64,000 nucleotides of DNA from a virus (IMGVR_UViG_3300014038_000199), one strand, 5' to 3'. Numbered from the stretch's first letter, positions 3,465 through 32,958 are shown. Numbers and translations: made by a program. The notes: generated by a model from the sequence alone, not told the origin.

Positions 3465-3761
3465 ATGTCAGAGAAAAATACAAGTACGCTAGTAGGAGCA
3501 ATTAAGAAGAACGATAGAGGAGACCATATAGCTGTCAGCAGGTCAACTTATGGGGGTTCAGATGGTTTAGACATTAGAAACTATTATACCAAAGAAGATG
3601 GAGAGATAGCACCTACTCAAAAGGGAGTTAAGATAAATTCTGAACTTGTTACGGATGTTATGGCTTTGATATTAAAGGCTATGACTCTAGAGGAATTTAT
3701 GGATTTTGAAGATACTTATGAGGCTATTAAAAAATCAAGAGAGCAAGAAGAGGGTGAATAA
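3465..3761 (+). CDS. PC4/YdbC-like ssDNA-binding protein.
   Basis: The segment YGGSDGLDIRNYYTKEDGEIAPTQKGVKINSELVTDVMALILKAM matches the YdbC/PC4 pattern (nGg.pKyDIR.W ... mgKGitL..eE..L). Confidence 0.4.
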   Translation: MSEKNTSTLVGAIKKNDRGDHIAVSRSTYGGSDGLDIRNYYTKEDGEIAPTQKGVKINSELVTDVMALILKAMTLEEFMDFEDTYEAIKKSREQEEGE

Positions 3762-3811
3762 ATTTAATTTAGGCTTTATTATATAATATGATATAAGATA
3801 AAATTTTTTAA

Positions 3812-3845
3812 GGACAGGTAGAAATGCCTGTTCTTTTAGTTTAGA
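3812..3845 (+). terminator. Weak stem-loop followed by a T-run.
   Basis: AGGACAGG tagaaatg CCTGTTCT followed by ttttagttt. Confidence 0.35.
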
Positions 3846-3858
3846 AAAGAGGGAACAC

Positions 3859-5430
3859 ATGGGAAAAGATATATTGGAGAATAAATTTGGTGATTTATAT
3901 AGTACTTTAGTTGAGGTTGAAAATTTAGAGGAACCAGAACTTTTATTCTTTAAGGGTCAGGATAAAGCAATAGAATTATTAAAGAAACATATAGTAAACA
4001 GAAGTACTATTAGTTTATTGGCTGATATTGATATGGATGGAATTGGTTCGGCTTATGTAGTTTATGAGTTTTTAAGTTCTTTAGGTTTAAGTGGTTGTAT
4101 AAAGCCCGTAATAAATAAAGATAAAGTTCATGGTTTAAGTGAAAAACATATAGATTATATAAATAATAAAGTAAAGCCTGATTTATTTATTATAGTGGAT
4201 AGTAGTTCCAGTGATATTAATATTATAAAACAGTTTAATTGTGATGTATTGGTGTTAGACCATCATAAAATAGATTATGACAGAGTAGGGAATATTGATA
4301 CTGAGCATTTATATAGTGGCAATACTTCTAAAGGTGTATATTATATCATTAATAATATATTAAGTGATTTATCTCCTGATATGAGCGGCTGTCAGGTTTG
4401 TTATGAATTTTTCAGAAACATGGAGAATAGTTTAGGTTTATCAGAGAAGAGTATATTAAAATCAAAACTTTTATATCAGATAGTAGGGGTTACCTTGTTT
4501 TCTGATGCTGTAAAGCTTAATAATTTACGAAATCAATGGTATATACAATCTACATTGTGTAATTTTGAGATAAACATTACATTAAAAACTTTAATGAACA
4601 ATATAAATAAGTATAATAAATACTTAACTAAAACTTTTATACAGTTTAAGTTAGTGCCTTTGTTTAATAAGGCTATACGAGCAGGTTATTCTTCTATTGC
4701 ATTGGATATATTCTTAAATAAACCCTCTAAAATAAATGCTTTATTAGAATTAGGTATAGATACTATACAAAAAGAAGTATTAAATTCTAATTCAGAGAAT
4801 TGCAGTTTATATGGAAATATGGTTATATCTAATTTAGGATTGACAGATACAAGTACCAACTATTCTGGGGTCATTGCTCAAAGATTAGTAGACACTTTTA
4901 GAAAAAGCAGTATAGCTTTCAGGTTAAGTGGAGATATTTATAAGGGAAGTTTTAGGGGATTGTATAGTTTAGATTACAATAAGGCTTTAGTAGACTCTGG
5001 AATAAAATGTGCTGGACATTCAAGTGCTTTCGGAATAGAGTTTACTAAAGAAAGTTTTCTTGTAATACAATCTGTTGTAGATAAGCTAGAGTCTAACATA
5101 GATAATTATAAAGATGCATTTATATCCATAGAATGTAGTGGGGGTGAAATAGAATTAACAAGGAAAGAATTTGATGACTTAAAGAGTATAGGTGGTTTAT
5201 GGGATATTGCTAAGATAAATAAGAATATATCCTCTTATGAACAATTATTAATTAAAATACCTAAAGAATTGTTAGATTTAGATACAAATGCAAAGATTAA
5301 TGATAAATTTAAGGTATATAAATTTTATGGTATCAGGAGCGTGTCCTTTGATAGTTACTTAACTGATTATGTTAAGTTGTATTGTGAGTATACTGATGGA
5401 ATTAATATTTTTATAAGGAACTTGTATTAA
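3859..5430 (+). CDS. DHH-DHHA1 family phosphoesterase (RecJ/NrnA-like).
   Basis: DHH motifs: DIDMDGIGS (motifs I-II), IIVDSSSSD, VLVLDHHKID (motif III). DHHA1-like KCAGHSSAFG near the C-terminus. Good RBS (gaggga). Confidence 0.65.
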   Translation: MGKDILENKFGDLYSTLVEVENLEEPELLFFKGQDKAIELLKKHIVNRSTISLLADIDMDGIGSAYVVYEFLSSLGLSGCIKPVINKDKVHGLSEKHIDYINNKVKPDLFIIVDSSSSDINIIKQFNCDVLVLDHHKIDYDRVGNIDTEHLYSGNTSKGVYYIINNILSDLSPDMSGCQVCYEFFRNMENSLGLSEKSILKSKLLYQIVGVTLFSDAVKLNNLRNQWYIQSTLCNFEINITLKTLMNNINKYNKYLTKTFIQFKLVPLFNKAIRAGYSSIALDIFLNKPSKINALLELGIDTIQKEVLNSNSENCSLYGNMVISNLGLTDTSTNYSGVIAQRLVDTFRKSSIAFRLSGDIYKGSFRGLYSLDYNKALVDSGIKCAGHSSAFGIEFTKESFLVIQSVVDKLESNIDNYKDAFISIECSGGEIELTRKEFDDLKSIGGLWDIAKINKNISSYEQLLIKIPKELLDLDTNAKINDKFKVYKFYGIRSVSFDSYLTDYVKLYCEYTDGINIFIRNLY

Positions 5431-5518: not shown

Positions 5519-6388
5519 ATGAAATTATTTAATAATTCTAAAAATAAGAATAGGGAAAACGGTATGTATAACACTAATATCAATAAAGGCAAGAGTTTTA
5601 TGCCTATTGCTACTGTGTGTGCAGTTACTGTAGTTGCTATGGCTTGGGTAGGTTTTACGGGCAGAAAAGCTGAAGAAACTGTTAGTGTTGTAATGATAAA
5701 AGAGCCAATGTATAAAAATGAAGTCCTAACAGAAGATAATATGATGGAATACAAGATGATTAGGGCTGAGTATGATAAGTATGCCATTAAAAGAAGTGAT
5801 GGTACTATAACTCAAAGGTTAATACTCTGGAAAGATAAAGACAAGGCTATAAATACTTTTGCAGCTTATCCCTTACAAAAAGAAAGTTTATTAGAGGCTA
5901 GAAGTCTTATTGTAAGTAGGGTAGATAACACTGATAGTGTATTATATGCTTTTCCAAGTAAGGAAATAGTAGAGTTGGAAGTTGGTGGAAGTGAGTTAAA
6001 CTCTTTTAAGACTTTCTTACAGCCTGGAGATAGGGTCAATGTTGATGCTATATTCTCTGAGCGTATACAAAGGGAAAAGAGTGATGGATATGGTGGAACT
6101 GTCATGGAAGATGTGGAAGTAAGTAAGACAGAGCCTGTTTTCACCAGTATTATGATAGCTGATATTATAAACGGACAAGGACAGTCAGTATTAGATATTT
6201 ACCAAAAATATAATAATGCAACTGTTCAAGAGCAAGCAGCCTTAGATGCCTCTGATGAGTTTAGACAGCAAACAGAGCCTAAGACACTATTAGTTGCTTT
6301 GACTCCAGATGAAAAGGATAGATATTATCAGTTTTTATCTAAGAACAATAATAAGTTCAGAATCAGTTTACCTCAAAGAATTAAGTAG
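5519..6388 (+). CDS. CpaB/RcpC-like pilus assembly protein (N-terminal TM anchor plus periplasmic-type domain).
   Basis: N-terminal TM (IATVCAVTVVAMAWVGF), CpaB-like size and topology, and a position immediately upstream of the TadZ/TadA genes. Confidence 0.4.
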   Translation: MKLFNNSKNKNRENGMYNTNINKGKSFMPIATVCAVTVVAMAWVGFTGRKAEETVSVVMIKEPMYKNEVLTEDNMMEYKMIRAEYDKYAIKRSDGTITQRLILWKDKDKAINTFAAYPLQKESLLEARSLIVSRVDNTDSVLYAFPSKEIVELEVGGSELNSFKTFLQPGDRVNVDAIFSERIQREKSDGYGGTVMEDVEVSKTEPVFTSIMIADIINGQGQSVLDIYQKYNNATVQEQAALDASDEFRQQTEPKTLLVALTPDEKDRYYQFLSKNNNKFRISLPQRIK

Positions 6389-6408
6389 TTTATGGGAGGG
6401 CATAGTTT

Positions 6409-7302
6409 ATGGGTTTAGATGATATAATAGAGAAAGCCATAGTTACTGAGGATAACGGTAATGATATCAGAGAAACCGCTAAGAAAGTTACTAAAGGCAT
6501 AGTAACTGAAATAAGCGGAAAAGATAATAATGTTATTAAGCCTGTTATAAATAATGTTATAGGTTTTATGTCTGCTGGAGGCGGAGCAGGAGCAAGTACT
6601 ATAGTAGCCAATACTGCTAAATTAATAAAGAAAAAGGGATTATCTGTAGCTATAGTAGATTTGAACATAGTTTATCCGAGTCAGCACTTATATTTTTCTA
6701 TACCACAGGAGTTGGGTAGAAATGATATTTATAGTCTAATGTCAGGTAAGTCAGAACTAGGAGCAAGTTTAGTATACTCTGGCGATATAGCTTTGTTATT
6801 AGCAAATAATCGTGGAATAGTTGATTATATAAACGGAGATGATAAGTATTTTTCAGCCAACCTTGAGAAAGCTATAGATAATTTAAGTTATCGTTTTGAT
6901 GTAGTTTTGATTGATTGTCCTTTGGATGTTTCTAATAGCTATGTAAATGCTTCATTATACAAAATAGATACTTTATATTTAGTTATAGATGATGGTGTTC
7001 AGTCAATTATAAATGTACCAAAGATAAGAAATGCTTTTGACAGATTTGGTATAGGTTTTGGAAAATGTAAATTTGTTATGAATAAAAGAACCAGTAATTT
7101 TTATAATGAGAGCAATTTATCTAAGGCTGACATTAAATTGATTGAGATTATACCTTTTGATTTAGGCATAATAACATCTGGATTAAGGTGTGAATTATAT
7201 GTAGATAAAGGAATTGGTGTAGACAAGACTAGTAAAGAAGTTGAGAAAGCTTTTAATAGTTTATGTGAAAAAATACTAAGTATAGGGGGCTATAAGAAGT
7301 AA
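6409..7302 (+). CDS. TadZ/CpaE-like atypical MinD/ParA-family protein (Lys-less Walker A).
   Basis: P-loop-like GFMSAGGGAGASTIVANTAKL lacking the canonical Lys. Walker-B-like FDVVLIDCPLD. Operon context with TadA. Confidence 0.5.
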   Translation: MGLDDIIEKAIVTEDNGNDIRETAKKVTKGIVTEISGKDNNVIKPVINNVIGFMSAGGGAGASTIVANTAKLIKKKGLSVAIVDLNIVYPSQHLYFSIPQELGRNDIYSLMSGKSELGASLVYSGDIALLLANNRGIVDYINGDDKYFSANLEKAIDNLSYRFDVVLIDCPLDVSNSYVNASLYKIDTLYLVIDDGVQSIINVPKIRNAFDRFGIGFGKCKFVMNKRTSNFYNESNLSKADIKLIEIIPFDLGIITSGLRCELYVDKGIGVDKTSKEVEKAFNSLCEKILSIGGYKK

Positions 7303-8796
7303 ATGAAACCTAGTGATTATTTAGAGTTATCCTCTAAAAGAGATGTTAAGAAGAACTTTATATCTGATAATAACGACCAGACTAAAAATATAGATTTTGT
7401 AGTTAGCGAGTGTAGAAAGTTCCTCAACCTTAACGCTTATGAATACTCCAATAAAACTGGAGATGAAAAAAAGGCAATGCTACAAAACCTTATAAATAAA
7501 TTTATAGAAAATATAAATTATAAGGTCAGTGGATTTATTACATCAGATGGAAAATTAAATGTTAATGAGTTATTAAACAAATTATCTCAAGACATTACGG
7601 ATTATGGTATTTTATCTGCTGCTATGTATGATGATGAAATATCAGAGATACAAATAAACGGTAAGGAAATTAAGGTAGAGAGAAAGGGAAGGATAGAAGA
7701 TTACAGAGATAGTTCTGATAGGATTTTATCTTTCAGTTCTACAGAACAACAAGATGTAGTATTTAAGCGTTTATTAGGAGATACAAGACTATCACCTAAG
7801 GATGCAATTTCAAATGCAAGAACAGTTGAGGGTTATCGTATAGCTGCTGTTCATCATAGTGTTATAGCTATGGATACTTTAGTTTCTTCAAACAATGGTT
7901 ATAATTATGCTGTTATTCGTAAGTTCAGAAAGCAAAAAATGCCAATACAGCAGTTGGTTAAATATGAAACTATGAGTGATAACATGGCAAAGTTTCTTGG
8001 AACAATGATAGAGGGTGGTTCCACTTTCTTAACAGTTGGACAGACTGCTTCTGGTAAGACTACAACCAATCAATGTATTTTGGATACTGTTCCTAGTGAT
8101 TTAAGAACTATACTTATACAGAATCCATCAGAGATTGACCTTGCAAGAAGAGATAGTACAGGTAGAGTTACCAACAATGTTGTTCATTTTGAGGCAAGGA
8201 GCATAGAAAATCCAACTGAAGCAGACCCTACGATGGAGAACTTTATGAACCAGTCATTAAGATTTTCTCCAACCTTTATATCCTTTGGTGAGTTGAGATT
8301 GGATTCAGAGTTTACTAGGGCTATGGCAGCGGCGTTGGCTGGACACTCTTTTAATTGTACCTTCCACGCTGGTAGTAGTCATGGTGCTATGCTAAGATAT
8401 GCTACAGCTTATGAAGCTGGTTCTGGAAGTAATAGAGAAACAGTTATGATAAACTTAACGAGCCATGTTAATTTCATTATAGTTCAAGATATAATGAAAG
8501 ATGGTACTCGTAAGATACTTCAGATAACAGAAGTTTTAGGAACTAAGAAAGATGATAGGGCTGAACCAGACTTAAATGATTTGTACATTTTTGATGTAGG
8601 AGAAACAGACTATGATGAGAATGGCAAAATAATTAAAATAAATGGTACTCATAAGAGAGTAGGAAAGTTATCAGATGCTACTGTTCGTAAATTTAAGTTA
8701 CATGGAGTTAATCCTGATAAATATTCTTTCTTGTTAGGTGATGCTACGGATGATGAAGTAGAAACTTATACAGGAGACTTTGAGTTTGGGAGGTAG
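7303..8796 (+). CDS. TadA/CpaF-type secretion ATPase (VirB11/GspE superfamily).
   Basis: Walker A TVGQTASGKTT. Asp/Glu boxes. ISFGELRLDSEF (GEIR-like). His box NCTFHAGSSHGAMLRY. Confidence 0.7.
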   Translation: MKPSDYLELSSKRDVKKNFISDNNDQTKNIDFVVSECRKFLNLNAYEYSNKTGDEKKAMLQNLINKFIENINYKVSGFITSDGKLNVNELLNKLSQDITDYGILSAAMYDDEISEIQINGKEIKVERKGRIEDYRDSSDRILSFSSTEQQDVVFKRLLGDTRLSPKDAISNARTVEGYRIAAVHHSVIAMDTLVSSNNGYNYAVIRKFRKQKMPIQQLVKYETMSDNMAKFLGTMIEGGSTFLTVGQTASGKTTTNQCILDTVPSDLRTILIQNPSEIDLARRDSTGRVTNNVVHFEARSIENPTEADPTMENFMNQSLRFSPTFISFGELRLDSEFTRAMAAALAGHSFNCTFHAGSSHGAMLRYATAYEAGSGSNRETVMINLTSHVNFIIVQDIMKDGTRKILQITEVLGTKKDDRAEPDLNDLYIFDVGETDYDENGKIIKINGTHKRVGKLSDATVRKFKLHGVNPDKYSFLLGDATDDEVETYTGDFEFGR

Positions 8797-8799
8797 TAC

Positions 8800-9795
8800 A
8801 TGGGTTCAATAAATAAAGCTTTAACTACTACTAGCGGTGTAACAGTAAGTGCATTATTAATAATAGCTCTTGCAGCTTTGTTTTTTATATTTTACATATT
8901 AAAGTTTCGACCTGGCGATTGGTTAACTGGTTTAGCTAAGCTTATACTAAAGATTACTGGTAAGAATATAAATAAAGCAGAGAGGGATTATGAAAGAAAC
9001 CTTGAGATTGGAAGATATAAGCAAAAGTCAATAAGAGTAAAAGTTTATAAGTTTTTGAATGATTTAACTATAGACTTAGACCTTAAGTCATCTGGGTATA
9101 CTCCTTATACTTTATTATTTTTTATAGTTGCTGTCAGTGTTGTTATAGCTTTTATTGTAAGTAATATTGTATTTAGAAATTTATGGTTATTTATTTTTGC
9201 TTTTCCTATTGTTTTTGCTGCTATAGCCTGTTTTTTATATACTAGGGCTAATATAGCACATGATAGCCGTATAGATGATGTTATAGCTTCTGAAAATATT
9301 ATAAGTAACAATGTTAGTAAGGGAGTTGTAGTTTCTATAAGAATGAATTTAGATAGTTTTCCTATTAAATTACAGCCTGTTTTCAGGGAATTTGTAGATA
9401 GTGTGGAAACAAGAAATACTCATGTTAGGACAGCATTGATTGAGTTAGGAAGTAACCTTGGTTCTGTATCTGACGACTTTATTCAAAAGTGTATAACATT
9501 TGAGTTAGAAGAGGAGCATGGTTTAGTAGGAATATTTAATGATGTTGTAGAAGTAAACAGCATTAAGAGTGAGTTTAGGATTTATATGAAGCGTAAGTTT
9601 GAGGAGGTTATGTTTGAGTTTATAATGGGATTAGGAATGATATTCTTTTTCCTTGGTGGTATTATAGCCTTATATCCTATGCTACAAAAATTTTATTTTG
9701 TTAATATTTTCGGTCAGATATTGTTATTATTAGATGGGCTTTTAATAGTAGATGAGTTTGTTTATATAACATATCTAAGAGCACAAGAGTTATAG
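8800..9795 (+). CDS. TadB-like (GspF-family) platform membrane protein.
   Basis: About 330 aa, with hydrophobic helices at the N-terminus, middle and C-terminus, immediately downstream of the TadA-like ATPase. Confidence 0.45.
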   Translation: MGSINKALTTTSGVTVSALLIIALAALFFIFYILKFRPGDWLTGLAKLILKITGKNINKAERDYERNLEIGRYKQKSIRVKVYKFLNDLTIDLDLKSSGYTPYTLLFFIVAVSVVIAFIVSNIVFRNLWLFIFAFPIVFAAIACFLYTRANIAHDSRIDDVIASENIISNNVSKGVVVSIRMNLDSFPIKLQPVFREFVDSVETRNTHVRTALIELGSNLGSVSDDFIQKCITFELEEEHGLVGIFNDVVEVNSIKSEFRIYMKRKFEEVMFEFIMGLGMIFFFLGGIIALYPMLQKFYFVNIFGQILLLLDGLLIVDEFVYITYLRAQEL

Positions 9796-9805
9796 GAGGG
9801 TATTA

Positions 9806-10873
9806 ATGGTTTCAAGTAATTTAATTATATTAGCCTCTGCTGTAGGTAATTATGGTATAAACAATAGTAATGACATTAATATAGGCGATGGCTTTAAGTA
9901 TGAGTATTTCAATCCTATCACATTAAAGTTATTAAACAATTACGGATTTATAAAAATTCTTGTTGCTATAATACTTGTAGTATTAGCCTTTCTTATAATA
10001 AAAAATATGATGGGAATACGAAGCATATTTACATCAAAGGCTGTCAGGACAGAGATAGACAACTATAATAACCTTAGAGATAGGGATAGTAGAATACTCC
10101 ATGCTAATAAGTTTATTAGGGGAATAACAGGGTTTATAACAAACAAAGGTTTTAGAGTAAATCCATCTTATAAAGAGTACTTTCAGTATAATTTAGATAG
10201 AGCAAATGTCAGGATACCTGGCGGAAGTAGAATATATACTCCTGATGAATTTAACAGCTTAAAAGTGTTGTTTATTTGTTTAGTAATACTTATAAGTTTA
10301 TTAGTTTCTTGGTTTGTATCTCCATTCTTTGGTTTTATATTAGCTGTTGTAGTTGGTTCTGCTATAAATATACTTCCAATGATGATTATAAGACGAATAG
10401 TAGCAGCTAAGGACAGTGAGATAAGAGAAGATTTTCCAGATTTATATTTAATGATACATTATGAGATAATGAGTGGTGCAAAAACTCCATTAGCTAAGGC
10501 TTTTACTTCTTATAGAAGAGTTACAGACTCTATAGAGATGTTAAAGTTTGTAGATACATCTATAAATATGTTTGAAACTTATGGGGATGAAGAGGCTGCT
10601 ACTAGAATAGCTAAGATTTATAGAGAAATACCTGAAGTTACTAGGTTAATGCGTCTTATAAATCAGTTACATACTGGTGGAGATGTTAAAAAAGAGTTAA
10701 ACGGATTTAGGGAACAAATAATAAAAGATAAAAAGTACAGATTAGAGGTTAAAATGAATAAGTTAATCATTAAGGCTAAGATGTCGTTTTATTTAAGTTA
10801 TATTGTTTTAGCCCAAGCAATTATAAGTGCTATGGCTTTATTTTTCCCAGATTTGAATTTTTTCAGGTTATAA
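9806..10873 (+). CDS. TadC-like (GspF-family) platform membrane protein.
   Basis: Second paralogous polytopic protein of about 355 aa with the same topology pattern. Confidence 0.45.
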   Translation: MVSSNLIILASAVGNYGINNSNDINIGDGFKYEYFNPITLKLLNNYGFIKILVAIILVVLAFLIIKNMMGIRSIFTSKAVRTEIDNYNNLRDRDSRILHANKFIRGITGFITNKGFRVNPSYKEYFQYNLDRANVRIPGGSRIYTPDEFNSLKVLFICLVILISLLVSWFVSPFFGFILAVVVGSAINILPMMIIRRIVAAKDSEIREDFPDLYLMIHYEIMSGAKTPLAKAFTSYRRVTDSIEMLKFVDTSINMFETYGDEEAATRIAKIYREIPEVTRLMRLINQLHTGGDVKKELNGFREQIIKDKKYRLEVKMNKLIIKAKMSFYLSYIVLAQAIISAMALFFPDLNFFRL

Positions 10874-10975
10874 AGCTATAAAACTAGAATTTAAGAACTG
10901 GTTTAAGTTTATTAGGTGTAAGAGTAAATAAGATAAAATACTCTTGATACACAGTATATAGGAGGAAAATAAAAA

Positions 10976-11236
10976 TTGAAAAAGATATTCATAGGGCTTA
11001 TCACAGCGGCTGTAATGGTAACAATAGGTTATATAGCATTAAGAATTGTATTACCAAATACTTATATGTCAATGACTAATGCTATTGAAAAGGGAATCAA
11101 GAGCGGTACAGGTATTGCATTTGACCTTAACGGAGATGGTCAGATTGGTACTGGAGCAATGCCAAATACTAATTCTTTGAACGAGAAAGCTAAACAGGGT
11201 GATAATACTGTTACAGGATTAGATGGTTTACATTAA
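10976..11236 (+). CDS. Small N-anchored pilin-like protein (candidate major subunit).
   Basis: 86 aa with TTG start and a strong RBS. N-terminal hydrophobic helix then a Gly-rich tail. No canonical G/xxxxEY Flp cleavage motif. Confidence 0.3.
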   Translation: MKKIFIGLITAAVMVTIGYIALRIVLPNTYMSMTNAIEKGIKSGTGIAFDLNGDGQIGTGAMPNTNSLNEKAKQGDNTVTGLDGLH

Positions 11237-11325
11237 TTTTTAAGATGTAACCTATTAAGTCAACTTAGGCTACAATACACTATTGTAGCCTATTTTAATT
11301 CTATTAGAATAGGAGGTTACGGATT

Positions 11326-11868
11326 TTGAGTGATGCATTGAGATTTATATTTAAGACATTTATAAAGATACCTTTTATAATAATGATTTCTTATTTCCTA
11401 GTTAATTTACTTTTGTTTTCGTTGTATTATTTCAAGTTTACTGGTATAAGTTACAGTGTAATGAATACTGCAATGGAGAATAATTATATACCAGAAAATG
11501 AGTATGGAACTATAAAAAAGACTATAGATGACATAAAGAATAGTAGCGTACTTATAAAGGATGCTGACATTGTAACTGACACTCCAAATAAAAGAAAACA
11601 ATATGGAAGTAAGGTAAAAGTAGGTGTTAGATATACTTATAGATGGTTAACACCTTTAATGCCTTGGGATACAGGTCAAACTCCCTCTGATATAAGAGGT
11701 GGAACTAGTATAATTGATGATAGTACTGCCAGTGAGGGAAATTTATCTTCTATAACTGCTGAGGAGGCAAGGAGAAGAATAGATGCCTTATCAGATAGGT
11801 CATTAAATTCACCAATAGAAATAGTCTATGAGGTGCCAGGATTGCAATACTATCCTGATATGAATTAG
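11326..11868 (+). CDS. N-anchored protein, candidate minor pilin (TadE-like).
   Basis: TTG start with RBS. Single N-terminal TM followed by a soluble domain. Confidence 0.3.
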   Translation: MSDALRFIFKTFIKIPFIIMISYFLVNLLLFSLYYFKFTGISYSVMNTAMENNYIPENEYGTIKKTIDDIKNSSVLIKDADIVTDTPNKRKQYGSKVKVGVRYTYRWLTPLMPWDTGQTPSDIRGGTSIIDDSTASEGNLSSITAEEARRRIDALSDRSLNSPIEIVYEVPGLQYYPDMN

Positions 11869-11885
11869 TTTATGAGGATACTTTA

Positions 11886-12887
11886 ATGGGTAGTGGTATA
11901 AAAAGTATATTTAAGGTTCTTATATTTTTTACTTTATTTGTTACAATAGGGATGCTTATTATTGAGGTATATAATTTGACTATAGCTAGTGAGTTATTAA
12001 AATCTACGGCTCATGCTACTTTAGAGAGGTCTTGTGATTATTTTGCTCAGGAGAGCTATAAGAATGGAAGTGGAAATGCATATCAGTTAAGAGGATACAA
12101 TAGTAGTTTAGATACTTCCTTAAACGGACAATTTTATTATGGTTCTGACTCTCAAGTTTATGATAAATTATATACTAACAGTGATGAATTTGCAACTTAT
12201 GTTAATAGATTTAAGGATAATTATAGGAAACTTAAGGTATTAGGTAAAGGTTTAGGTTTAACTCATGATATTTTACTTGATGGTGAGGATGCTATAGGTT
12301 CTTATTACAGACAAGGCTTGGTAACTCCATTAAATATAGGTATAGCATACTTAGATAGAGGTACTGTTGAAAAGATATTCAAATGGGAATTAGTTGCTGT
12401 ATTATCTTCTGGGCAAGACGATATGATAATTACAGACCCTGCTGATGGCAGTAACCCTTATGTTTTATATAAAGGGTTTAGAATTTATTATAACTCTATA
12501 CAGTTAGAGGATCCTTCTTATAAAGTTTATGATTTATTTAATAGTGATGATAAGAAAAAATTTGAAGAATTAACTAACATAGAAGTTGATGATTATATGC
12601 TAAGGGCTAGGATAAATGAATCAGATGAGCGTAGATATATAGTTGTAGCTAATATGAATTATAAAGTTCGTGTAGGATATGAGGGAATAACTCCCATAAG
12701 AAGGCTTTTTCAGTGGGTAGTTAATACAGGAGATGATGAAAGATATGATATAAACAATCCAAAGTGGAGTGGAGATACTACTTTAAGTAGGGTAGGAGCA
12801 AGAAATGAGGACTTTTTTAGGTCAGGTTTAAGATATGACTCTTCTGTGGGAATAGGAAATAAGATTATATACTATATAGTCAGATAG
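11886..12887 (+). CDS. N-anchored protein, candidate minor pilin (TadG-like).
   Basis: N-terminal TM (VLIFFTLFVTIGMLIIEVY) plus a soluble domain of about 300 aa. Confidence 0.3.
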   Translation: MGSGIKSIFKVLIFFTLFVTIGMLIIEVYNLTIASELLKSTAHATLERSCDYFAQESYKNGSGNAYQLRGYNSSLDTSLNGQFYYGSDSQVYDKLYTNSDEFATYVNRFKDNYRKLKVLGKGLGLTHDILLDGEDAIGSYYRQGLVTPLNIGIAYLDRGTVEKIFKWELVAVLSSGQDDMIITDPADGSNPYVLYKGFRIYYNSIQLEDPSYKVYDLFNSDDKKKFEELTNIEVDDYMLRARINESDERRYIVVANMNYKVRVGYEGITPIRRLFQWVVNTGDDERYDINNPKWSGDTTLSRVGARNEDFFRSGLRYDSSVGIGNKIIYYIVR

Positions 12888-12895
12888 GAGGTTTA

Positions 12896-13531
12896 ATGTT
12901 TAGTTTATTCGGAAAAAAGAAAGCAAAAGAGCCTGTAGAAGAACTTCCAATAGTAGATAAGGCATTATTGATTTTAACGGATAACCCAAAGGCTGGTATG
13001 GTAGATTATTTTAAGTCTTTTGATATAAAGATTAAGGGTTTATATAAAAGTTTAGATGATTTAAGAACTGAATTAATTTTATATAGTTCAGATATACCTA
13101 CCAGATTAGTTATTGTAGACAGTGGAGTTGATAAGTTTAACTCTACTGGAAACGGAGATAATAATTTATATGATATATTAGAGTTGGCAAGTAATAAGGA
13201 CTTTGATATTACTGTATTAACTTCTAATAAAGGCTTAGTAAAAAGTGTAAAGAATATACTTAAGAAATTAGGTAAAGCAGTTAATGATAAAGCTGATTAC
13301 TCAGAGTATGACAGTATAAATTCTATAATAGAAAAGTTAAGTTCTTATAGAGAACATTATATAGAGAATGGAGCAACAGATATAGTTTTAGAAGAGCCAT
13401 TAAAATTTAAGGGGCAAGAGGTAGATGTGAAGTATCAAACTGGAATAAAATACAATGATTTTGAAACTTTAGCAGGTATATCAGATGATACTTTAGGAAA
13501 TAGTTTAATAGCTTTTAAGGTTAAGATTTAA
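12896..13531 (+). CDS. Receiver (REC)-like standalone domain protein.
   Basis: ALLILTDN ... RLVIVDSG pattern resembling a CheY-like/pseudo-receiver fold, comparable to the TadZ N-terminal domain. Confidence 0.3.
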   Translation: MFSLFGKKKAKEPVEELPIVDKALLILTDNPKAGMVDYFKSFDIKIKGLYKSLDDLRTELILYSSDIPTRLVIVDSGVDKFNSTGNGDNNLYDILELASNKDFDITVLTSNKGLVKSVKNILKKLGKAVNDKADYSEYDSINSIIEKLSSYREHYIENGATDIVLEEPLKFKGQEVDVKYQTGIKYNDFETLAGISDDTLGNSLIAFKVKI

Positions 13532-13659: not shown

Positions 13660-13766
13660 TATGAAAGTAAGTTCAGATGTAGCATAAAAGCTAAGAAAGA
13701 GAGTTTATGAGTTTAATTCAAGCATTTTTGATTGATAATTTTAATTTCAAGGAGGTAACTAAAATA

Positions 13767-14948
13767 ATGTTACATGTTTGTACAGACCAAGGTGCTTCAT
13801 GCACTAGATATTCAGCAAATAACAGTAAGGTGTATAAGAACCCTAATAACTTCATTACTGTAGAACCTGATGAAGATATCAGATATATACCACACAGCGA
13901 TGAATTTGTTGATAATATGGACTTAACAATTACTAAAGATGGTGATAGCGATTTCTTTCCTAAAAGGATACTTGGAGGAACTTTAGCAGATAGGTATTCA
14001 AGTTCTTCTGTTAAGCCAAGCATGCTTTCAAGCAAGAGTAAGCAACCAGTTAACTACTATAGCATTATTTCATCAGTTGTGGACTCTATACTGCTTAAAG
14101 AGGGTTCATTAAATGGAGAAAATCCTGTAGAGGTAGCTTGCTATATATGTTTACCACCTGTTGAAATTACGGGTAATAATGAAAACGAGGACTATGTAAA
14201 GGCACAGCTTAAAGGAAAGTATACGGTTAAGTTAAATAAGATGGATAAAGAGATTACTTTTAATATAAGAGAAGTGAGCATTTATCCAGAGAGTGTAATG
14301 GCTGTTGTTGCTTTTCTATTTAATCAAGATGCTACACAGCGTACAGAGATGGCTAAGTACAATAAAGGAAATGTACTAAGCTTTGATATAGGTGCAAGTA
14401 CCTCTGATTTAGTTATAATAAATGATAGAAAGTTTGTGGAGCATTCTGGATATACCTGTAAGCTTGGTGGAAATATCATAGATGACTTACTTCGTAATGA
14501 AATTCGCAGAAAGTTAGGTGTAGAAGTTTCCAACGATGACATAGCAGAGGCAGTAAGAACAGGTAGACTTGCTTATGGAAGTTCTTATAAAGATGTAAGC
14601 GAAGAGTTAAAGAAGTGTAAAAAGCAGTTTGCAAAAATGCTTTTTGAGAAGATTCAGAACTACTTTGCTACTAATGGAATGGGATTGCAGTCTATTAAGG
14701 CTATATTTATGAGTGGCGGAGGTTCTATGCCATCAAGTTACATAGATGAGTCTGGTAAAGAGATAGTAACTTCTCCATCTGTTGGCGAGTACATAGATGA
14801 GGAGATTAAAAAAGTATGTGACAGCATTGACATGGTACTTTCACCGTCTGTAAATCCTAGGGAGTGCAATATAGTTGGATTAATACTTAGTATGAATGTT
14901 CAGAGAAAGCAATCTCAAATTCAGAGCAATAAAAGTAAAAAAGAATAA
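13767..14948 (+). CDS. ParM/Alp-like actin-family ATPase (plasmid segregation type II).
   Basis: Start re-assigned to the ATG at 13767, which has a strong RBS (aaggagg) and is in frame with the track ORF. N-terminus MLHVCTDQGASCT resembles ParM MLVFIDDGSTNIK (phosphate-1). Phosphate-2-like FDIGASTSDLVII. C-terminal MSGGGS. Confidence 0.6.
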   Translation: MLHVCTDQGASCTRYSANNSKVYKNPNNFITVEPDEDIRYIPHSDEFVDNMDLTITKDGDSDFFPKRILGGTLADRYSSSSVKPSMLSSKSKQPVNYYSIISSVVDSILLKEGSLNGENPVEVACYICLPPVEITGNNENEDYVKAQLKGKYTVKLNKMDKEITFNIREVSIYPESVMAVVAFLFNQDATQRTEMAKYNKGNVLSFDIGASTSDLVIINDRKFVEHSGYTCKLGGNIIDDLLRNEIRRKLGVEVSNDDIAEAVRTGRLAYGSSYKDVSEELKKCKKQFAKMLFEKIQNYFATNGMGLQSIKAIFMSGGGSMPSSYIDESGKEIVTSPSVGEYIDEEIKKVCDSIDMVLSPSVNPRECNIVGLILSMNVQRKQSQIQSNKSKKE

Positions 14949-18799: not shown

Positions 18800-19021
18800 A
18801 TGAAAAAGTTTGCGGTTTATTTTATAAACAGTAATAAAAAGAGTTGTGTACTTTGCTTAGAGAATGATTATGATACTGCTCAAGTTAAGTACAAGATATA
18901 TAACAGATTGGGAAATGTCAGGATACATGAATATGAGAGTAATACTTCCATAGATGAAGATTTGGAAAGTTTATTAGAATTAGAAGATAAGATAGACAGT
19001 TTAGGGGGCGTTGATGAGTAG
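18800..19021 (+). CDS. Small hypothetical protein.
   Basis: ATG at 18800 with an aggagg RBS is preferred over the track start at 18782. Confidence 0.3.
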   Translation: MKKFAVYFINSNKKSCVLCLENDYDTAQVKYKIYNRLGNVRIHEYESNTSIDEDLESLLELEDKIDSLGGVDE

Positions 19022-19889
19022 AATACATTTGATAATAGATTTTATGCCTTTGTATTATAAGTACTTTTTTAAGTTAAAATGTGGGAAACTTTCTAAATTA
19101 AGTTATAATGATTTAGACACTACTTATTTATATTACATAACAAAAGAGATAGAAGATTCTTGTAAATTGGTTTCTAAAGATAGAGAAAACATTTTAATAA
19201 GTGTTTGTTTTGATTCTAAAGGCAGTAAAAGAAAAGAAATAGATACTAATTATAAGAGTAATAGGGATACGAACCTTGAGAGTTATGATTTTGACATGAT
19301 AGATAATTTTATATACCCTATATTTGATAAACTATATGACTCTTATAAATTGGATGGATATGAGGCAGATGATATAATAGTAGGTTTAGCTAAGCATACA
19401 GATAATTTTGATAAGATTTATGTGATGTCACCTGATAAAGACTTGTCTCATCTGATAAATGATAAAGTCAGTTGTATTAAAAATTCTACAATGAACAGTA
19501 GTAAATATATAGTTGATATGTATAGCTATGAGGATATATTGACTAGTAAACTTGGAGCAAGAATACCTTATAATTCAATCTTATTATATCTATGTACTGT
19601 AGGAGATAGCTCAGATAACATTAAAGGAGTTAGCGGTTTTGGTAAATCAGCCTTTAATAAATTAATACTAAGCAATAAAGAATTTGATTATTCTTCTTTA
19701 GATACAAAAGATAACATACTTAAGTTTTTAGAGAGTATATTTGATGGAGATAAGTTAAGTCAGGCTAAACATAGTTTAGATTTAGTATATCCTTTTGATT
19801 TAGAAATAGAATTAAAGGATTCAAATTCAGATAGAGATGTCAAATTTAAGGAGTTTATGGCTTATGGATTCAAAAGTTTAATTTATTAG
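19011..19889 (+). CDS. 5'-3' exonuclease / flap endonuclease (PIN plus H3TH), T5 D15/Pol I 5'-exo type.
   Basis: N-terminus IHLIIDFMPLYYK (LLLVDG.SLAFR-like). GYEADDIIVGLAKH matches the EADDVIATLA motif. TVGDSSDNIKGVSGFGKSAFNKLI matches the H3TH LVGDSSDNIPGVPGIG motif. Confidence 0.7.
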   Translation: MMSRIHLIIDFMPLYYKYFFKLKCGKLSKLSYNDLDTTYLYYITKEIEDSCKLVSKDRENILISVCFDSKGSKRKEIDTNYKSNRDTNLESYDFDMIDNFIYPIFDKLYDSYKLDGYEADDIIVGLAKHTDNFDKIYVMSPDKDLSHLINDKVSCIKNSTMNSSKYIVDMYSYEDILTSKLGARIPYNSILLYLCTVGDSSDNIKGVSGFGKSAFNKLILSNKEFDYSSLDTKDNILKFLESIFDGDKLSQAKHSLDLVYPFDLEIELKDSNSDRDVKFKEFMAYGFKSLIY

Positions 19890-25618: not shown

Positions 25619-26827
25619 TTGTATAACATAGATTCTAATATAGATAAGCCTGATTTTAAGTTTTTATTTGAGGAAATAGATAATTTAGTTGGTGGAAAAG
25701 GTTTAAGACTTAGTAATAAGATTTTTGAATTAAAGAATAATTTATTTAAAGAGGTAAATAGTTTAAGTGCTTTTATAGTCAGTCAATATAATATAAATAA
25801 CCCTAATTCACCTGCTCAGGTTTTAGAGTACATAAAAGAGCATTTAGACTTAGACCTGTTAAAGTATTGTACTGATGAAAAAACGGGTAAGATAAGTTCA
25901 AGTAAAGAAAATTTAATTAAGCTTGCAAGTTTAGGAAATACTTTTGCAAGTGATTTATTGAATTATAGAAAACATAAAAAGCAATTAGAGTATATAGAAT
26001 GTTTATTAGGTAGTTGTGACAGATATGGTAGGATATTTCCTGATGTTAGTTTAGGTACTACAAATAGGATAAATTATACAAATCCGCCACTAATGAATAT
26101 ACCTAAAGACATATTGTGGGATGTTTTAGCTCCTAGAGCAACTGGAAATTACTTAGTTAGTGTGGATATAAAAAATCAAGAGCCAACAGTTTTAATAAAC
26201 TGGCATAATATAACTTGTTTGAAAGACAAGTTAACATCTGATAGGGGATTGTATTTTGAGATATTTGTTGAGATATTTAATAGAGAGCCAAAAGATGATG
26301 AATTAGCGGAGTTAAAGACGACCTGGTTAGCTTTGAATTACGGAGCAACTAAATTCGGTATATCAGGTATATGTTCTCTTATAGACAGTAATTTGATTTA
26401 TGATTATTTTACAAGCATAAAAGAAATTAAGAGGTATACAGGTAAAGCTTATGGATTAGCCAAAAATAAGTGTAGGAAAGCATATACTTATTTCGGAACA
26501 GAGTTAAAATTAGATGCTAAAGATTTATCTCAATTAAAAAGACAACATTTGGATTTTCCTATACAGGGCACTTGCAGTGATATATTGTCTCTGCTTGTAA
26601 AAAGATTTAGGGCATATATAAATACATATAAATTAGGAAATAAACTTAGTATATATTATACAAGACATGATGAATTGATAATAGAAGTAGATAAAGATTT
26701 TTATGAAGAAAGAAATACCAATAAAGATGAAGATGAAAACATATATTGTTTATTAGGGGAAATACTTAATCATAAAGTAGATGATTGGATTGAGTTCAAA
26801 ACTAAGATAGCATTAGTCAAATCATAG
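25619..26827 (+). CDS. Compact family-A DNA polymerase, polymerase (fingers/palm) domain only.
   Basis: SPAQVLEYIKEHLDL (Pol I SPKQL..ILFEKLGL-like). Motif A LVSVDIKNQEPTVL (DYSQIELR-like). Motif B KTTWLALNYGATKFGIS (K..NFG..YG). FPIQGTCSDIL (QGTAADI). Motif C YYTRHDELIIEV (HDE). TTG start with an aaggag RBS. Confidence 0.7.
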   Translation: MYNIDSNIDKPDFKFLFEEIDNLVGGKGLRLSNKIFELKNNLFKEVNSLSAFIVSQYNINNPNSPAQVLEYIKEHLDLDLLKYCTDEKTGKISSSKENLIKLASLGNTFASDLLNYRKHKKQLEYIECLLGSCDRYGRIFPDVSLGTTNRINYTNPPLMNIPKDILWDVLAPRATGNYLVSVDIKNQEPTVLINWHNITCLKDKLTSDRGLYFEIFVEIFNREPKDDELAELKTTWLALNYGATKFGISGICSLIDSNLIYDYFTSIKEIKRYTGKAYGLAKNKCRKAYTYFGTELKLDAKDLSQLKRQHLDFPIQGTCSDILSLLVKRFRAYINTYKLGNKLSIYYTRHDELIIEVDKDFYEERNTNKDEDENIYCLLGEILNHKVDDWIEFKTKIALVKS

Positions 26828-29782: not shown

Positions 29783-30766
29783 ATGAGTAAATATATTTTA
29801 AGAGATGTGTTAGATGCCTTATACGATATGCAAAAACTTCGTATAGCGAGTGGTAATAGGTTATATCAGATATTTAAGGATAAATCTGATGCTGACACTG
29901 CTATTTTAGAAGAGATAGAGAAGGAAAAGCAAAATAATGGGGAAGATAAAGAGAATGATGTTAAAGCTGATGCTCTGTTAAAATCTATAAATTCAGAGTA
30001 TAAAGAGTTGACAGCCTATATGACCGAAAATAATAAGACAATAGCTTCAGCCTTAAAGAAGATTGAAACTATTAAGATATTAACTAAGACAGATTATAGT
30101 ATGGTTAGGGCTTATAATCTGTTATTGGAATCAGAAGAAAGTTATAAAAAGGTGTTAGAGTCAACTATCAAAGAGCATCCTGTATGCACAGGTTTTTTGA
30201 ATAATATAAAAGGGTGCGGACCGATGATGAGTGCAAACATAATAGCGTATTTAGACCCTTATAAAGCCAGACATGCCTCTAGTTTCAGAAAATATGCTGG
30301 TTTAGATGTAGTTCCTACTAAGGATAAAGAGGGTAATTTTATGTTTGATGAAGAGGGTAATATGATTACCCATGGAAGAAAGATGGCAGATACTGAAAAC
30401 TATGAATACATAGATAAGAACGGCAATAAAGCTATCAAAAAGGGTATTACATATAATCCAAAGTTAAAGTCTAAATTAATAGGAGTTTTAGCGTCTGGTA
30501 TAATCAAAGCTAAAGACCCTGTGTATACAAAGATTTATTATGACTATAAGATGAGATTGGAAAACCACCCAAAGCACAAAGACAAGTCAGCAGCTCATAG
30601 GAATAACATGGCATTGCGTTATATGATACAAAAGTTGCTAAGTAACTTATGGGCTTATTGGAGAGAACTTGAGGGATTAGAAGTAACAGAGCCTTATGAG
30701 GTTGCAAAGTTAGGAATGAGACCACATGGGTTTAACGATGGAGATAATAAAAAGAATACAAACTAA
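29783..30766 (+). CDS. Helix-hairpin-helix protein resembling the C-terminal (Transposase_20) domain of IS110-family transposases. Candidate array-binding or initiator protein.
   Basis: GCGPMMSANIIAYLDPYKARHASSFRKYAGLDVVP fits (G.G...A..I.A..gd...F.......YAGL.P). Downstream HGRKMADTENY ... KKGITYNPKLKSKL ... YYDYKMR ... KHKDKSAAHRNNMALRYMIQKL matches the IS110 C-terminal pattern. The N-terminal 130 aa lack the DEDD/RuvC-like motifs. Confidence 0.4.
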   Translation: MSKYILRDVLDALYDMQKLRIASGNRLYQIFKDKSDADTAILEEIEKEKQNNGEDKENDVKADALLKSINSEYKELTAYMTENNKTIASALKKIETIKILTKTDYSMVRAYNLLLESEESYKKVLESTIKEHPVCTGFLNNIKGCGPMMSANIIAYLDPYKARHASSFRKYAGLDVVPTKDKEGNFMFDEEGNMITHGRKMADTENYEYIDKNGNKAIKKGITYNPKLKSKLIGVLASGIIKAKDPVYTKIYYDYKMRLENHPKHKDKSAAHRNNMALRYMIQKLLSNLWAYWRELEGLEVTEPYEVAKLGMRPHGFNDGDNKKNTN

Positions 30767-32438: not shown

Positions 32439-32442
32439 AAAA

Positions 32443-32484
32443 AATCAGAGCCTGTTTTTTTGACAGGCTATGATTTTTATTTTA
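32443..32484 (+). terminator. Rho-independent terminator.
   Basis: AATCAGAGCCTGT-ttttttg-ACAGGCTATGATT followed by TTTATTTT. Confidence 0.6.
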
Positions 32485-32948: not shown

Positions 32949-32958
32949 GAAAGGAGAT

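Follow-up and report, generated by a model that had tools for sequence, protein, structure and literature searches.

A Tad-like operon with a CpaF-type ATPase, probably encoding a divergent type IV filament, carried by a giant plasmid-like element from Gram-positive bacteria

Tad (type IVc) loci have been published for Firmicutes (PMC6668835, PMC11217815), and Flp-pilus plasmids for Cutibacterium acnes (PMC5696575). Tad systems often move horizontally, and in monoderms their secretin is lost (PMC6668835). Two Tad-like loci on large plasmids, pMU3262 of Thermoanaerobacterium saccharolyticum (NC_017998.1) and pFCC41-4-144K of Bacillus wiedmannii (CP024688.1), are annotated, and we found no characterisation of either. 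Both lack a secretin and follow one order: cpaB, a ParA-type ATPase, a T2SS/T4P-family ATPase, two polytopic proteins of ~300 aa and small hydrophobic protein(s); an N-anchored DUF4320 protein stands next in line in pMU3262 and upstream in pFCC41-4. Family signatures are kept in these loci, with cpaB named by PGAP, weak T2SSF matches in three of the four membrane proteins and weak TadE/TadF matches in the DUF4320 proteins of both plasmids. Besides its Tad-like locus, pMU3262 carries FtsK/SpoIIIE, ParM and replication genes, a TraM-recognition-domain protein (read as VirD4-like) and replication-relaxation genes. MOB-suite assigns the two plasmid loci to MPF_T. Loci of this Tad-like kind are thus already known from plasmids of Gram-positive bacteria, and the preliminary description of the DNA studied here overstated its novelty in holding that such machines on plasmid- or phage-type replicons had not been described as a conjugation or entry apparatus in Firmicutes.

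The same order recurs in a window of 64,000 nucleotides from IMGVR_UViG_3300014038_000199, where nine consecutive ORFs on the + strand span 5519-13531, the extent given in the preliminary description (elsewhere the block is counted as a ten-gene operon). Intergenic gaps are 0-20 bp, except on either side of an 86-aa gene. At least 15 independent contigs share this gene order, which at ATPase identities of 42-82% recurs in 17 or more contigs altogether (12 from IMG/VR, 4 MAG contigs and one 522-kb gut scaffold), and this recurrence indicates that the block is no chance arrangement. Flanking the module are genes for DNA handling (PC4-like, DHH/RecJ-like and ParM-like actin), in an order conserved among relatives, the ParM/Alp7A-type actin gene lying immediately 3' of the block. 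In some lineages homing-endonuclease-like genes are inserted within the module. As in the plasmid loci, no secretin was found in the window by Pfam. All module components score under the curated family thresholds.

The best-defined component is the putative motor, a secretion ATPase of 497 aa (7303..8796) that matches the Pfam T2SSE family at 1.9e-18. Walker A (GQTASGKTT, residues 246-254), Walker B (GELR) and the His box are intact, and the catalytic motifs are invariant across 26 homologues, so that the motifs first reported for this protein hold and the His box proves invariant in the family. In a PDB profile search the best match was CpaF (E 4.5e-38, 134 bits), followed by FlaI (1.6e-21, 80 bits) and archaeal GspE (6.8e-19), whereas VirB11 reached only 8e-10 (41 bits), 28 orders of magnitude behind CpaF. 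NCBIfam ranked FlaI (2.5e-26) before TadA-type (6.5e-23) and VirB11 (2.3e-18) models, every one of these named-subfamily matches falling below its curated cut-off. Judged by these profiles, the protein belongs to the CpaF/TadA clade and not to VirB11 proper, in agreement with the initial assignment. It is 25-29% identical to the ATPases of the pMU3262 and pFCC41-4-144K loci. Weak relatives also occur in jumbo cyanophages.

Two polytopic proteins follow, TM1 (8800..9795, 331 aa, TadB position) and TM2 (9806..10873, 355 aa, TadC position). The predicted structure of TM1 has the GspF fold as its best match and contains the cytoplasmic helical bundle of GspF/PilC; SpoIIIAB, a channel component, is also among its top fold matches. 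TM2 is linked to the platform family by hhalign to plasmid TadC-position proteins only: it aligned with the second of the two membrane proteins encoded by the pMU3262 and pFCC41-4 loci over 181 columns (92%, E 5.8e-7), in a region overlapped by the weak T2SSF match (E 0.026) of the pMU3262 protein. T2SSF (PF00482) itself gave no match at E <=1 in the window proteins, 48 TM1 relatives or 8 TM2 relatives. The claim of two GspF-family proteins is thus partly borne out, by a predicted fold for one and a profile alignment for the other, but not by Pfam in either protein or their 56 relatives. Unlike the Tad paralogues TadB and TadC, which resemble each other, TM1 and TM2 show no detectable mutual similarity. 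Seven TM1 relatives gave very weak PrgI matches (E 0.0056 or weaker).

These last matches bear on whether the ATPase is instead the VirB11-type traffic ATPase of a conjugative T4SS, the block being an ordinary Gram-positive conjugation locus. The VirB11 models that match the ATPase and the MPF_T typing of related plasmid loci point the same way, as do two genes on the same element, ~2-11 kb beyond the 3' end of the window, for a 675-aa VirB4-like ATPase and a 759-aa coupling-type protein (FtsK/SpoIIIE). No VirB4/VirD4-like Walker A protein was found within the window. We consider this explanation very unlikely, given the lead of CpaF over VirB11, a gene order that is that of cpaB/Tad loci, and the GspF platform as best fold match of TM1, a platform not known from T4SS. 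Moreover, the block ends ~48 kb before the VirB4-like gene, the VirB4-like and FtsK-like genes starting ~48-51 kb past its end; the transfer genes lie ~45-55 kb downstream of the module with replication genes in between. With these genes the element is equipped for conventional Gram-positive transfer, so that DNA does not have to pass through the Tad-like module. The preliminary description had named a canonical T4SS just outside the window as a finding that would make the locus ordinary. This is partly the case, as the VirB4-like and FtsK/SpoIIIE genes lie within ~11 kb, but the module remains non-ordinary, being ~45 kb away from them and having components far outside the curated Tad families.

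The gene in the TadZ/CpaE position (6409..7302, 297 aa), labelled TadZ-like in the preliminary description, encodes a MinD/ParA-superfamily protein, with matches to AAA_31, MipZ and ParA in Pfam (~1e-6), to MinD (1e-9) and an actinobacterial CpaE homologue (7e-6) in NCBIfam, and to MinD (1.2e-16) and TadZ 3fkq (2.9e-4) in the PDB profile search. The P-loop of this protein, SAGGGAGAST, is degenerate, and the absence of the lysine is conserved in the family. Because only ~48 residues precede the MinD/ParA domain, the protein has no receiver-like domain. A ParA-type gene inside the block and a ParM/Alp7A-type actin gene directly after it, together with the lack of a family assignment for most members, could be read as a chance juxtaposition of segregation genes with unrelated membrane proteins. 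We give this reading next to no credence: the spacing is tight and the order invariant across deep divergence, a CpaF-type ATPase and a GspF-fold protein play no part in segregation, and the ParA-like protein lacks the P-loop lysines required of a partition ATPase.

Upstream, the first gene (5519..6388) encodes a bitopic protein of 289 aa with a single N-terminal TM segment (residues 27-45) and 44-87% identity within its family. Its matches to Pfam RcpC (E 0.009) and TIGR03177 CpaB (E 0.0018) are sub-threshold, as is its hhalign to a PGAP-annotated plasmid CpaB (E 0.003, probability 10%, 187 columns), and the PDB profile search returned no match. However, these matches agree with each other and with the gene order, the gene occupying the position of cpaB in the two plasmid loci (L019 and L020). 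Position thus favours the CpaB-like label originally given, and we retain it as a weak assignment. At the other end, p211 (12896..13531, 211 aa, no TM segment) is a candidate accessory protein conserved in position, with sequence identity of only 24-70%. It had been called REC-like, a label that finds no support: neither Pfam nor NCBIfam, nor a PDB profile search, nor an hhalign comparison with TadZ-like proteins gave a match.

Between TM2 and p211 lie three N-anchored proteins, p86 (10976..11236, 86 aa), p180 (11326..11868, 180 aa) and p333 (11886..12887, 333 aa), which share one in-register N-terminal motif and hydrophobic helix. By hhalign, the N-terminus of p333 matches p180 (68%, E 4.8e-5) and p86 (38%, E 3.3e-4). 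p86 begins with MKK (MKKIFIGL), continues into a hydrophobic helix of ~22 residues and, in the family alignment, shows a D-x-N-x-D-G loop that never varies, together with a tail rich in Gly and Asn. The structure predicted for p180 (pLDDT 82) has an N-terminal helix 50 residues long that packs against a small sheet, and this predicted shape is the general pilin shape. p333, with an invariant E27, falls in a family that is closed, comprising 197 clusters out of 1.84 billion representatives and lacking links to Pfam or the PDB. The three proteins are pilin-like by architecture only. Their description as such is upheld by the N-terminal anchor, the shared motif and the predicted fold of p180, but not by any family match, and no sequence method places TM1, TM2, p86, p180, p333 or p211 in the Tad, Flp, TadE or T2SSF family. 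No G/xxxxEY (Flp) motif was found in p86, p180 or p333, which also lack the broader G/xxxxE(Y/F) site of Flp/TadE proteins; p86 has no leader, Gly site or E5/Y6, and hhalign detected no similarity between it and the plasmid Flp-like proteins. If the candidates are uncleaved, their N-terminal lysines could not easily be accommodated inside the core of a filament, which counts against a filament.

Expression signals single out p86. Its gene has a TTG start and a perfect AGGAGG Shine-Dalgarno sequence, and directly 3' of it lies a stem-loop of 12 bp with a T-run (11266..11292, + strand), detected by the terminator scan and with a fold z-score of -4.4. Related loci L005-L009 carry strong hairpins at the same position with unrelated sequences (z-scores -2.3 to -4.8). 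The hairpin is likely an intrinsic terminator/attenuator by which p86 is kept at a high ratio to the subunits encoded after it. Taken together, the perfect Shine-Dalgarno sequence and the position-conserved hairpin look as they would for a major-subunit gene; p86 is accordingly our candidate major filament subunit, with p180 as a candidate minor and p333 as a candidate minor/tip subunit.

The same machine might instead work as a short pseudopilus or piston, pushing element-encoded surface proteins through the thick wall as in T2SS, or DNA in or out as in the Com pseudopilus and the Tad-dependent transformation of Micrococcus luteus. T2SS, Com and Tad machines all pair an ATPase with a GspF-fold platform, the conserved DNA-handling neighbours and the SpoIIIAB match of TM1 would suit such a role, and Tad genes are tied to natural transformation in M. 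luteus (PMC8467076). We nevertheless judge it unlikely, since ComEA, ComEC and other DNA-channel genes were not seen in the window, the operon has no evident secreted-substrate genes, and the high-expression signals of p86 fit a polymer of many subunits; DNA export, for its part, is already served by the separate T4SS-like apparatus of the element.

No prepilin peptidase of the A24 family was found in ~82 kb (window plus flanks) of the ~283-kb element. Within the window the scan applied Pfam to ten membrane-associated ORFs (nearly all the polytopic ones), and in the flanks it used precomputed Pfam annotations over 8 kb upstream and 10 kb downstream. tadV may be encoded apart from the Tad locus (PMC6668835). 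The reported lack of secretin, prepilin peptidase and Flp motif in the window therefore agrees with our scans.

The element has a GC content of ~30%, encodes a 1302-aa NlpC/P60 hydrolase and its own PolA, clamp loader and exonucleases, and carries nearly all its genes on one strand. Related IMG/VR contigs of 140-295 kb are filed as viral, and relatives of the module are also present in gut and rumen Clostridia/Lachnospiraceae MAGs, on contigs of up to 627 kb. Such filing, the near-single-strand layout with its replication genes, the homing-endonuclease-like insertions and the weak ATPase relatives in jumbo cyanophages would all be in keeping with a jumbo phage or phage-plasmid, whose module served the virus, for instance by excluding superinfection, remodelling the host surface or releasing particles. 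That is highly improbable, however: a PHROGs scan of 20 proteins from the window (those of the ten-gene block and ten other large ORFs) gave no capsid, portal, terminase or tail match, the VirB4-like and FtsK/SpoIIIE genes point to conjugation, and comparable giant elements, the Inocles, are enriched in the cell fraction and called plasmid-like (PMC12340149). The carrier is plasmid-like, giant in size and at home in Gram-positive bacteria of the gut or mouth, and we regard the module as a core module in a large family of such extrachromosomal elements from Firmicutes, which are low in GC and about 220-630 kb long. The single-copy InoC marker of the Inocles (~454 aa, with an N-terminal replication-relaxation domain, PF13814) was not found in the 82 kb of window and flanks; a 448-aa gene after FtsK has no Pfam match and does not resemble a replication-relaxation protein of pMU3262.

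We favour, with a probability of roughly 0.6, the reading that the operon encodes a strongly diverged type IV filament system, derived from Tad (type IVc) and adapted to a host without an outer membrane, whose filament would promote contact. The Tad lineage is suggested by the CpaF-nearest ATPase, the hhalign of TM2, the plasmid-type gene order, the shared subunit motif and the conservation of that order. The Tad/Flp-type machine of the preliminary description thus stands as far as the CpaF-type ATPase, the GspF-fold TM1 and the order of plasmid cpaB loci carry it, but most of its parts fall outside the Tad families. By homology and fold, a hexameric CpaF-like ATPase would dock on a platform of two different polytopic proteins. 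The ParA-type protein, despite its degenerate P-loop, may recruit or position the machine as TadZ does, and the CpaB-like protein could perhaps bridge the space between membrane and wall. ATP-driven platform movements would then draw the 86-aa subunit, presumably abundant, out of the membrane and polymerise it as a thin filament on the surface, with the 180-aa and 333-aa proteins, which carry the same N-terminal helix motif, as putative low-abundance priming or tip subunits. The filament would most likely touch recipient cells or surfaces and so aid spread of the element, a role suggested by its genetic context, while the DNA itself would pass via the separate VirB4/FtsK-type system downstream.

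Compared with the plasmid loci, the window shares gene order and a homologous TM2, whereas its TM1, p86, p180 and p333 do not resemble the corresponding plasmid proteins, the 211-aa protein is extra, and p86 lacks the classical G/ALTLLEW Flp site of the pMU3262 small protein. Among giant elements, the Inocles of oral Streptococcus (245-395 kb, GC 24-32%) resemble the carrier, by their published description, in replichore-type strand bias, mostly unknown genes, their own DNA polymerase, exonuclease and helicase, and absence from isolate genomes; they are reported with VirB4 and VirD4, and the paper mentions no Tad-like or pilus module (PMC12340149). Unlike SpoIIIAA-SpoIIIAB of the Bacillus sporulation channel, the block has Tad gene order, CpaB-like and ParA-like partners and pilin-like subunits, and no SpoIIIAC-AH-like ring proteins. 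As for archaeal type IV pili and the archaellum (FlaI with FlaJ), the very short basic N-terminal leaders of the subunits recall archaeal class III signals, and FlaI is the top NCBIfam and second-best PDB match of the ATPase, yet CpaF scores far higher (134 versus 80 bits), both the gene order and the presence of CpaB-like and ParA-like partners are characteristic of bacterial Tad, and there is no FlaJ-type two-domain platform. Canonical Tad/Flp systems (Aggregatibacter, Caulobacter with CpaF PDB 8rkd and 9e24, Bifidobacterium) differ in having a G/xxxxEY prepilin site, a TadV (none was found nearby here), and a secretin, TadD and RcpB, whose absence is expected in a monoderm; their TadZ has an atypical N-terminal receiver domain and P-loop lysines, both missing from the ParA-like protein. 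What the module shares with them is a CpaF-clade motor, two single-domain platform proteins in place of one two-domain GspF/PilC, a putative organiser of MinD/ParA type, a protein in the CpaB position, and a small candidate major subunit followed by larger candidate minor ones.

The window has a GC content of about 30% and a strongly positive GC skew, and nearly all of its ORFs lie on the plus strand. The preliminary description had placed a Tad-like module at 5519-13531, with the Walker A motif GQTASGKTT in its ATPase, and our ORF calls and motif check bear out both. The module consists of nine ORFs spaced by 0-20 bp, save on both sides of the gene for an 86-aa protein (p86). Proteins identical to those of the module are encoded by a 76-kb Logan contig and by two further contigs, of 283,459 and 283,723 bp; megablast of the module DNA against phage and plasmid collections returned no match. 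A single gene order (DHH, CpaB-like, ParA-like, ATPase, the polytopic proteins TM1 and TM2, the pilin-like candidates p86, p180 and p333, p211, and a ParM-like actin) is repeated in 12 IMG/VR contigs (85-295 kb), in four MAG contigs assigned to Lachnospiraceae bacterium and Clostridia bacterium, and on a 522-kb gut scaffold, the ATPases of all recurrences showing 42-82% identity. The block is not a chance arrangement, and the reading that unrelated genes have merely come to lie side by side is unlikely. More than 575 members make up the ATPase family, and their contigs reach 627 kb (219-284 kb in the window's own lineage); the ten-gene block is among the best-kept syntenic blocks of the element family, from 220-kb oral-type elements to gut contigs of more than 500 kb. 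Such wide conservation makes it a good candidate for a function that the elements need to persist or spread.

Some lineages carry an insert of 536-577 aa inside the module (locus L006, 7329-9062; L018, 8370-9980; L003, 98-1186), which we liken to a homing endonuclease because of its repeated Zn-ribbon motifs and endonuclease-like core. Its site varies, being the CpaB-like/ParA-like junction in L006 and the ParA-like/ATPase junction in L018. Upstream of the module, 3465-5430 encodes a PC4-like ssDNA-binding protein of 98 aa and a DHH/RecJ-like protein of 523 aa; the DHH gene lies immediately 5' of the module in all lineages examined, and several have a record of the PC4-like gene. The gene always found immediately 3' (13707-14948) encodes a ParM/Alp7A-type actin-like protein. 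For its homologue on the 522-kb scaffold a weak PilM_2 match was obtained as well, so that this actin-like protein may be linked with the pilus machine instead of with segregation.

The motor ATPase (7303-8796) matches Pfam T2SSE at 1.9e-18, and Walker A, the GELR Walker B motif and the His box are invariant across its family. A profile of 26 sequences searched against all PDB sequences ranked CpaF first (4.5e-38), followed by FlaI (1.6e-21), archaeal GspE (6.8e-19) and VirB11 (~1e-9); in NCBIfam, the order was FlaI, TadA type and VirB11, each far under its curated cut-off. Given this ranking, the protein is a CpaF-clade motor and not VirB11 proper, the assignment that the preliminary description had named as fatal to its view. 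The reading of the block as part of a type IV secretion system (T4SS) could point to the VirB11 match and to a T4SS-like transfer region on the same element, yet with CpaF so far ahead it is unlikely.

The ParA-like partner (6409-7302) belongs to the MinD/ParA superfamily (MinD, 1.2e-16) and matches the Eubacterium rectale TadZ structure 3fkq at 2.9e-4; it has no receiver-like N-domain. Throughout the family its P-loop reads S-x-G-G-A-G-A-S-T, without the lysine; for this protein the role of a scaffold is likelier than that of an active partition ATPase. The first gene of the module (5519-6388) encodes a protein with a single N-terminal TM segment. Three sub-threshold matches, to RcpC (0.009), to TIGR03177 CpaB (0.0018) and, by hhalign, to PGAP-annotated plasmid CpaB proteins (E 0.003, probability 10%), agree with each other and with the gene order; a PDB profile search returned nothing. 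The earlier label of CpaB-like thus fits its position, but with no match passing threshold the assignment is weak.

When the plasmid collection was searched at protein level, the best matches pointed to Thermoanaerobacterium pMU3262 and Bacillus wiedmannii pFCC41-4-144K. On each plasmid, cpaB is accompanied by genes for a ParA-type ATPase, a T2SS/T4P ATPase and two membrane proteins of ~300 aa, by Flp-like genes and by a gene for a DUF4320 protein. In pMU3262 this last gene comes after the Flp-like gene, and in pFCC41-4 it is located upstream of cpaB. Three of the four membrane proteins give weak T2SSF matches, and the DUF4320 protein scanned, that of pMU3262, gives weak TadE/TadF matches. pMU3262 has a classical G/ALTLLEW site, and it also encodes FtsK/SpoIIIE, a TraM-recognition-domain (VirD4-like) protein, replication-relaxation genes, ParM and dnaN. 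In addition, Tad loci of Firmicutes and Actinobacteria, plasmid-borne ones included, have been published (PMC6668835, PMC11217815, PMC5696575, PMC6916266). It was therefore too strong to call such machines undescribed on Gram-positive plasmids. We found no paper testing Tad function on Firmicute plasmids.

These plasmids also bear on the platform proteins, both of which had been assigned to the GspF family. TM2 (355 aa, 9806-10873) gave no direct T2SSF signal, nor did a Pfam scan of eight relatives. With hhalign, however, it aligned to the second membrane protein of the two plasmid loci (92%, E 5.8e-7, 181 columns), and that of pMU3262 has a weak T2SSF match (E 0.026) in a region overlapping the alignment; TM2 is thus homologous to the plasmid TadC-position proteins. 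For TM1 (331 aa, 8800-9795), a word-index profile search recovered only 241 proteins, which form a closed family devoid of Pfam domains, and none of 48 relatives matched T2SSF. PDB profile searches with TM1 and TM2 were empty, and hhalign found no relation of TM1 to the plasmid TadB-position proteins or to TM2. The AlphaFold2 model of TM1 (48-sequence alignment, pLDDT 75) nevertheless has the platform fold. The assignment is thus borne out in part, by predicted fold for TM1 and by homology to the plasmid proteins for TM2; T2SSF itself is found in neither. Platform proteins recognizable by fold alone make the module a test case for the extent of drift in the type IV filament blueprint.

The three N-anchored candidates for subunits, p86 (10976-11236), p180 (11326-11868) and p333 (11886-12887), matched nothing in the Flp, TadE, TadF and DUF4320 families or among PDB sequences, and hhalign against the plasmid Flp and DUF4320 proteins found no match. 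PDB profile searches with p180 and p333 were negative, exhaustive phmmer with p333 returned a closed family of 197 clusters alone, and a Pfam scan of 45 p333 relatives was negative. Their N-termini align in register with one another (hhalign probabilities 38-80%, E 1e-5 to 3e-4), sharing a pattern of M, 0-5 residues, [VIL]-[KR]-x-[IV]-F-x-x-L, ~20 hydrophobic residues and a conserved polar residue, which is an invariant N27 in p180 and an invariant E27 in p333. One N-terminal module on otherwise unrelated proteins has, as far as sequence can tell, the look of the pilin set of a single machine. The model of p180 (63 sequences, pLDDT 82, pTM 0.72) predicts a helix over residues 3-52, a second helix and three strands, a general pilin architecture; Foldseek against PDB found nothing significant. 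The earlier description of three pilin-like proteins is thus upheld by the common N-terminus and the predicted p180 fold, and not by any match to a pilin family.

A perfect AGGAGG Shine-Dalgarno precedes the p86 gene, and a hairpin of 12 bp with a T-run (11266-11292) comes after it. Equally strong hairpins of unrelated sequence occupy the same position in five other lineages (z-scores -2.3 to -4.8). These signals are consistent with p86 being a highly expressed major subunit, followed by minor subunits, presumably p180 and p333, made at a low level. Residues 50-58 of p86 form an invariant D-x-N-x-D-G-x-x-G loop resembling an EF-hand or dockerin calcium-binding site (Pfam E 0.05-0.1). The last protein of the module, p211 (12896-13531), has no TM segment and no match in Pfam, NCBIfam or the PDB profile search, nor did hhalign relate it to TadZ-like proteins; its former designation as REC-like is unsupported.

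Choline-binding repeats, a lipoprotein and the Clostridia/Lachnospiraceae MAG relatives point to a monoderm host, in agreement with the proposed absence of an outer membrane. A secretin is consequently not expected, and none was found. As the preliminary description had also held, no prepilin peptidase came to light: A24 peptidases were absent among the polytopic window ORFs scanned and in precomputed annotations 8 kb upstream and 10 kb downstream, a search that covered ~82 kb of the roughly 283-kb element. In some systems tadV is encoded apart (PMC6668835). The stretch 31599-35677 holds the gene of an SPFH/Band-7 protein and, after it, a series of small polytopic ORFs (54-224 aa) without family assignment; those at 32556-35677 were rejected as candidates for a prepilin peptidase, having no A24 signal. 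What is of real interest is that the N-terminus of the subunits is non-canonical and that the search has so far turned up no peptidase. To our knowledge, the G/xxxxE processing motif is otherwise universal among type IV filament subunits, so that subunits without it bear on the limits to which this blueprint can drift.

The window begins within the gene of a 1302-aa protein ending in an NlpC/P60 peptidoglycan hydrolase domain (152-2847; full gene at 6090-9998 of L021, the locus overlapping the 5' end), similar to cell-wall hydrolases of Gram-positive conjugative elements; a 436-aa lipoprotein is next, and a UvrD-type helicase lies farther upstream. A 5'-3' exonuclease (19011-19889), a PolA-like polymerase (25619-26827) and a clamp-loader subunit (46773-48179) complete, with the DHH/RecJ-like and PC4-like proteins and the helicase, an element-encoded replication set. 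An IS110-family transposase-like ORF occupies 29783-30766, and the 64 kb contain no tRNA genes. The T4SS-like transfer region (48305-63924, continuing at 10552-20210 of L022, the locus overlapping the 3' end) straddles the window's 3' end. Inside the window it encodes polytopic proteins of 880 aa and 1672 aa (~8 TM segments), a protein of 442 aa with two TM segments and another of 819 aa that contains a ParA-like domain. The search for VirB4 beyond the window, suggested earlier, succeeded: past the 3' end lie a 675-aa VirB4-like ATPase (DUF87 4.4e-5, TraG P-loop, AAA_10), a 759-aa FtsK/SpoIIIE protein (3.6e-12), a 448-aa protein and a SNF2 helicase. The 448-aa gene product showed no similarity to replication-relaxation protein (the InoC test). 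Judged by its transfer, hydrolase and replication genes, the element has the appearance of a giant conjugative plasmid-like replicon. IMG/VR files the family as viral, although virion genes were not detected among the window proteins scanned. A phage origin is unlikely, as none of 20 window proteins scanned had a PHROG structural match.

Taken together, the module is real and unusual, a variant within the Tad/type IVc family, best read as a type IV filament machine of the Tad lineage, too diverged for curated profiles to recognise and now a fixed core module of these giant elements. We favour contact or adhesion aiding element spread as the role of the putative filament, because the element has a separate set of genes for DNA transfer and pMU3262 shows the same pairing. 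The main rival to this role is a short pseudopilus serving secretion or DNA passage. A bolder proposal, which we regard as improbable, is that the machine builds a new Gram-positive type IV-like filament without use of the G/xxxxE site or an A24 peptidase, from subunits that stay uncleaved or are processed at the common [VIL]-K-x-I-F motif by an unknown enzyme, and that this filament is the mating pilus of giant conjugative elements. Gram-positive conjugation proceeds, in the textbook view, without a pilus; participation of the filament in mating would change that view. If true, the proposal would provide the first "sex pilus" of monoderm conjugation and explain the spread of 220-630 kb elements among gut and oral Firmicutes.

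Recognition of giant Firmicute extrachromosomal elements, the Inocles and their like, is very recent, and function has been assigned to few of their genes; the ten-gene block is one of the few in such elements to which a mechanism can be given, and the ATPase and TM1 families might be used as metagenome markers for them. The family studied here is nearly absent from 185,579 GTDB species genomes (four short MAG contigs only) and frequent in assembled metagenomes, where its contigs span 220-627 kb. Hodor megaplasmids were rejected as the family to which the element belongs, because their GC content (45-47%, PMC12934698, versus 30% here) and core genes differ. For the Inocles of oral Streptococcus, VirB4 and VirD4 are reported, with no pilus module (PMC12340149). 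By described features rather than by sequence comparison, it is these Inocles that the element resembles, in its size, GC and strand bias, in the genes it carries and in being absent from isolates.
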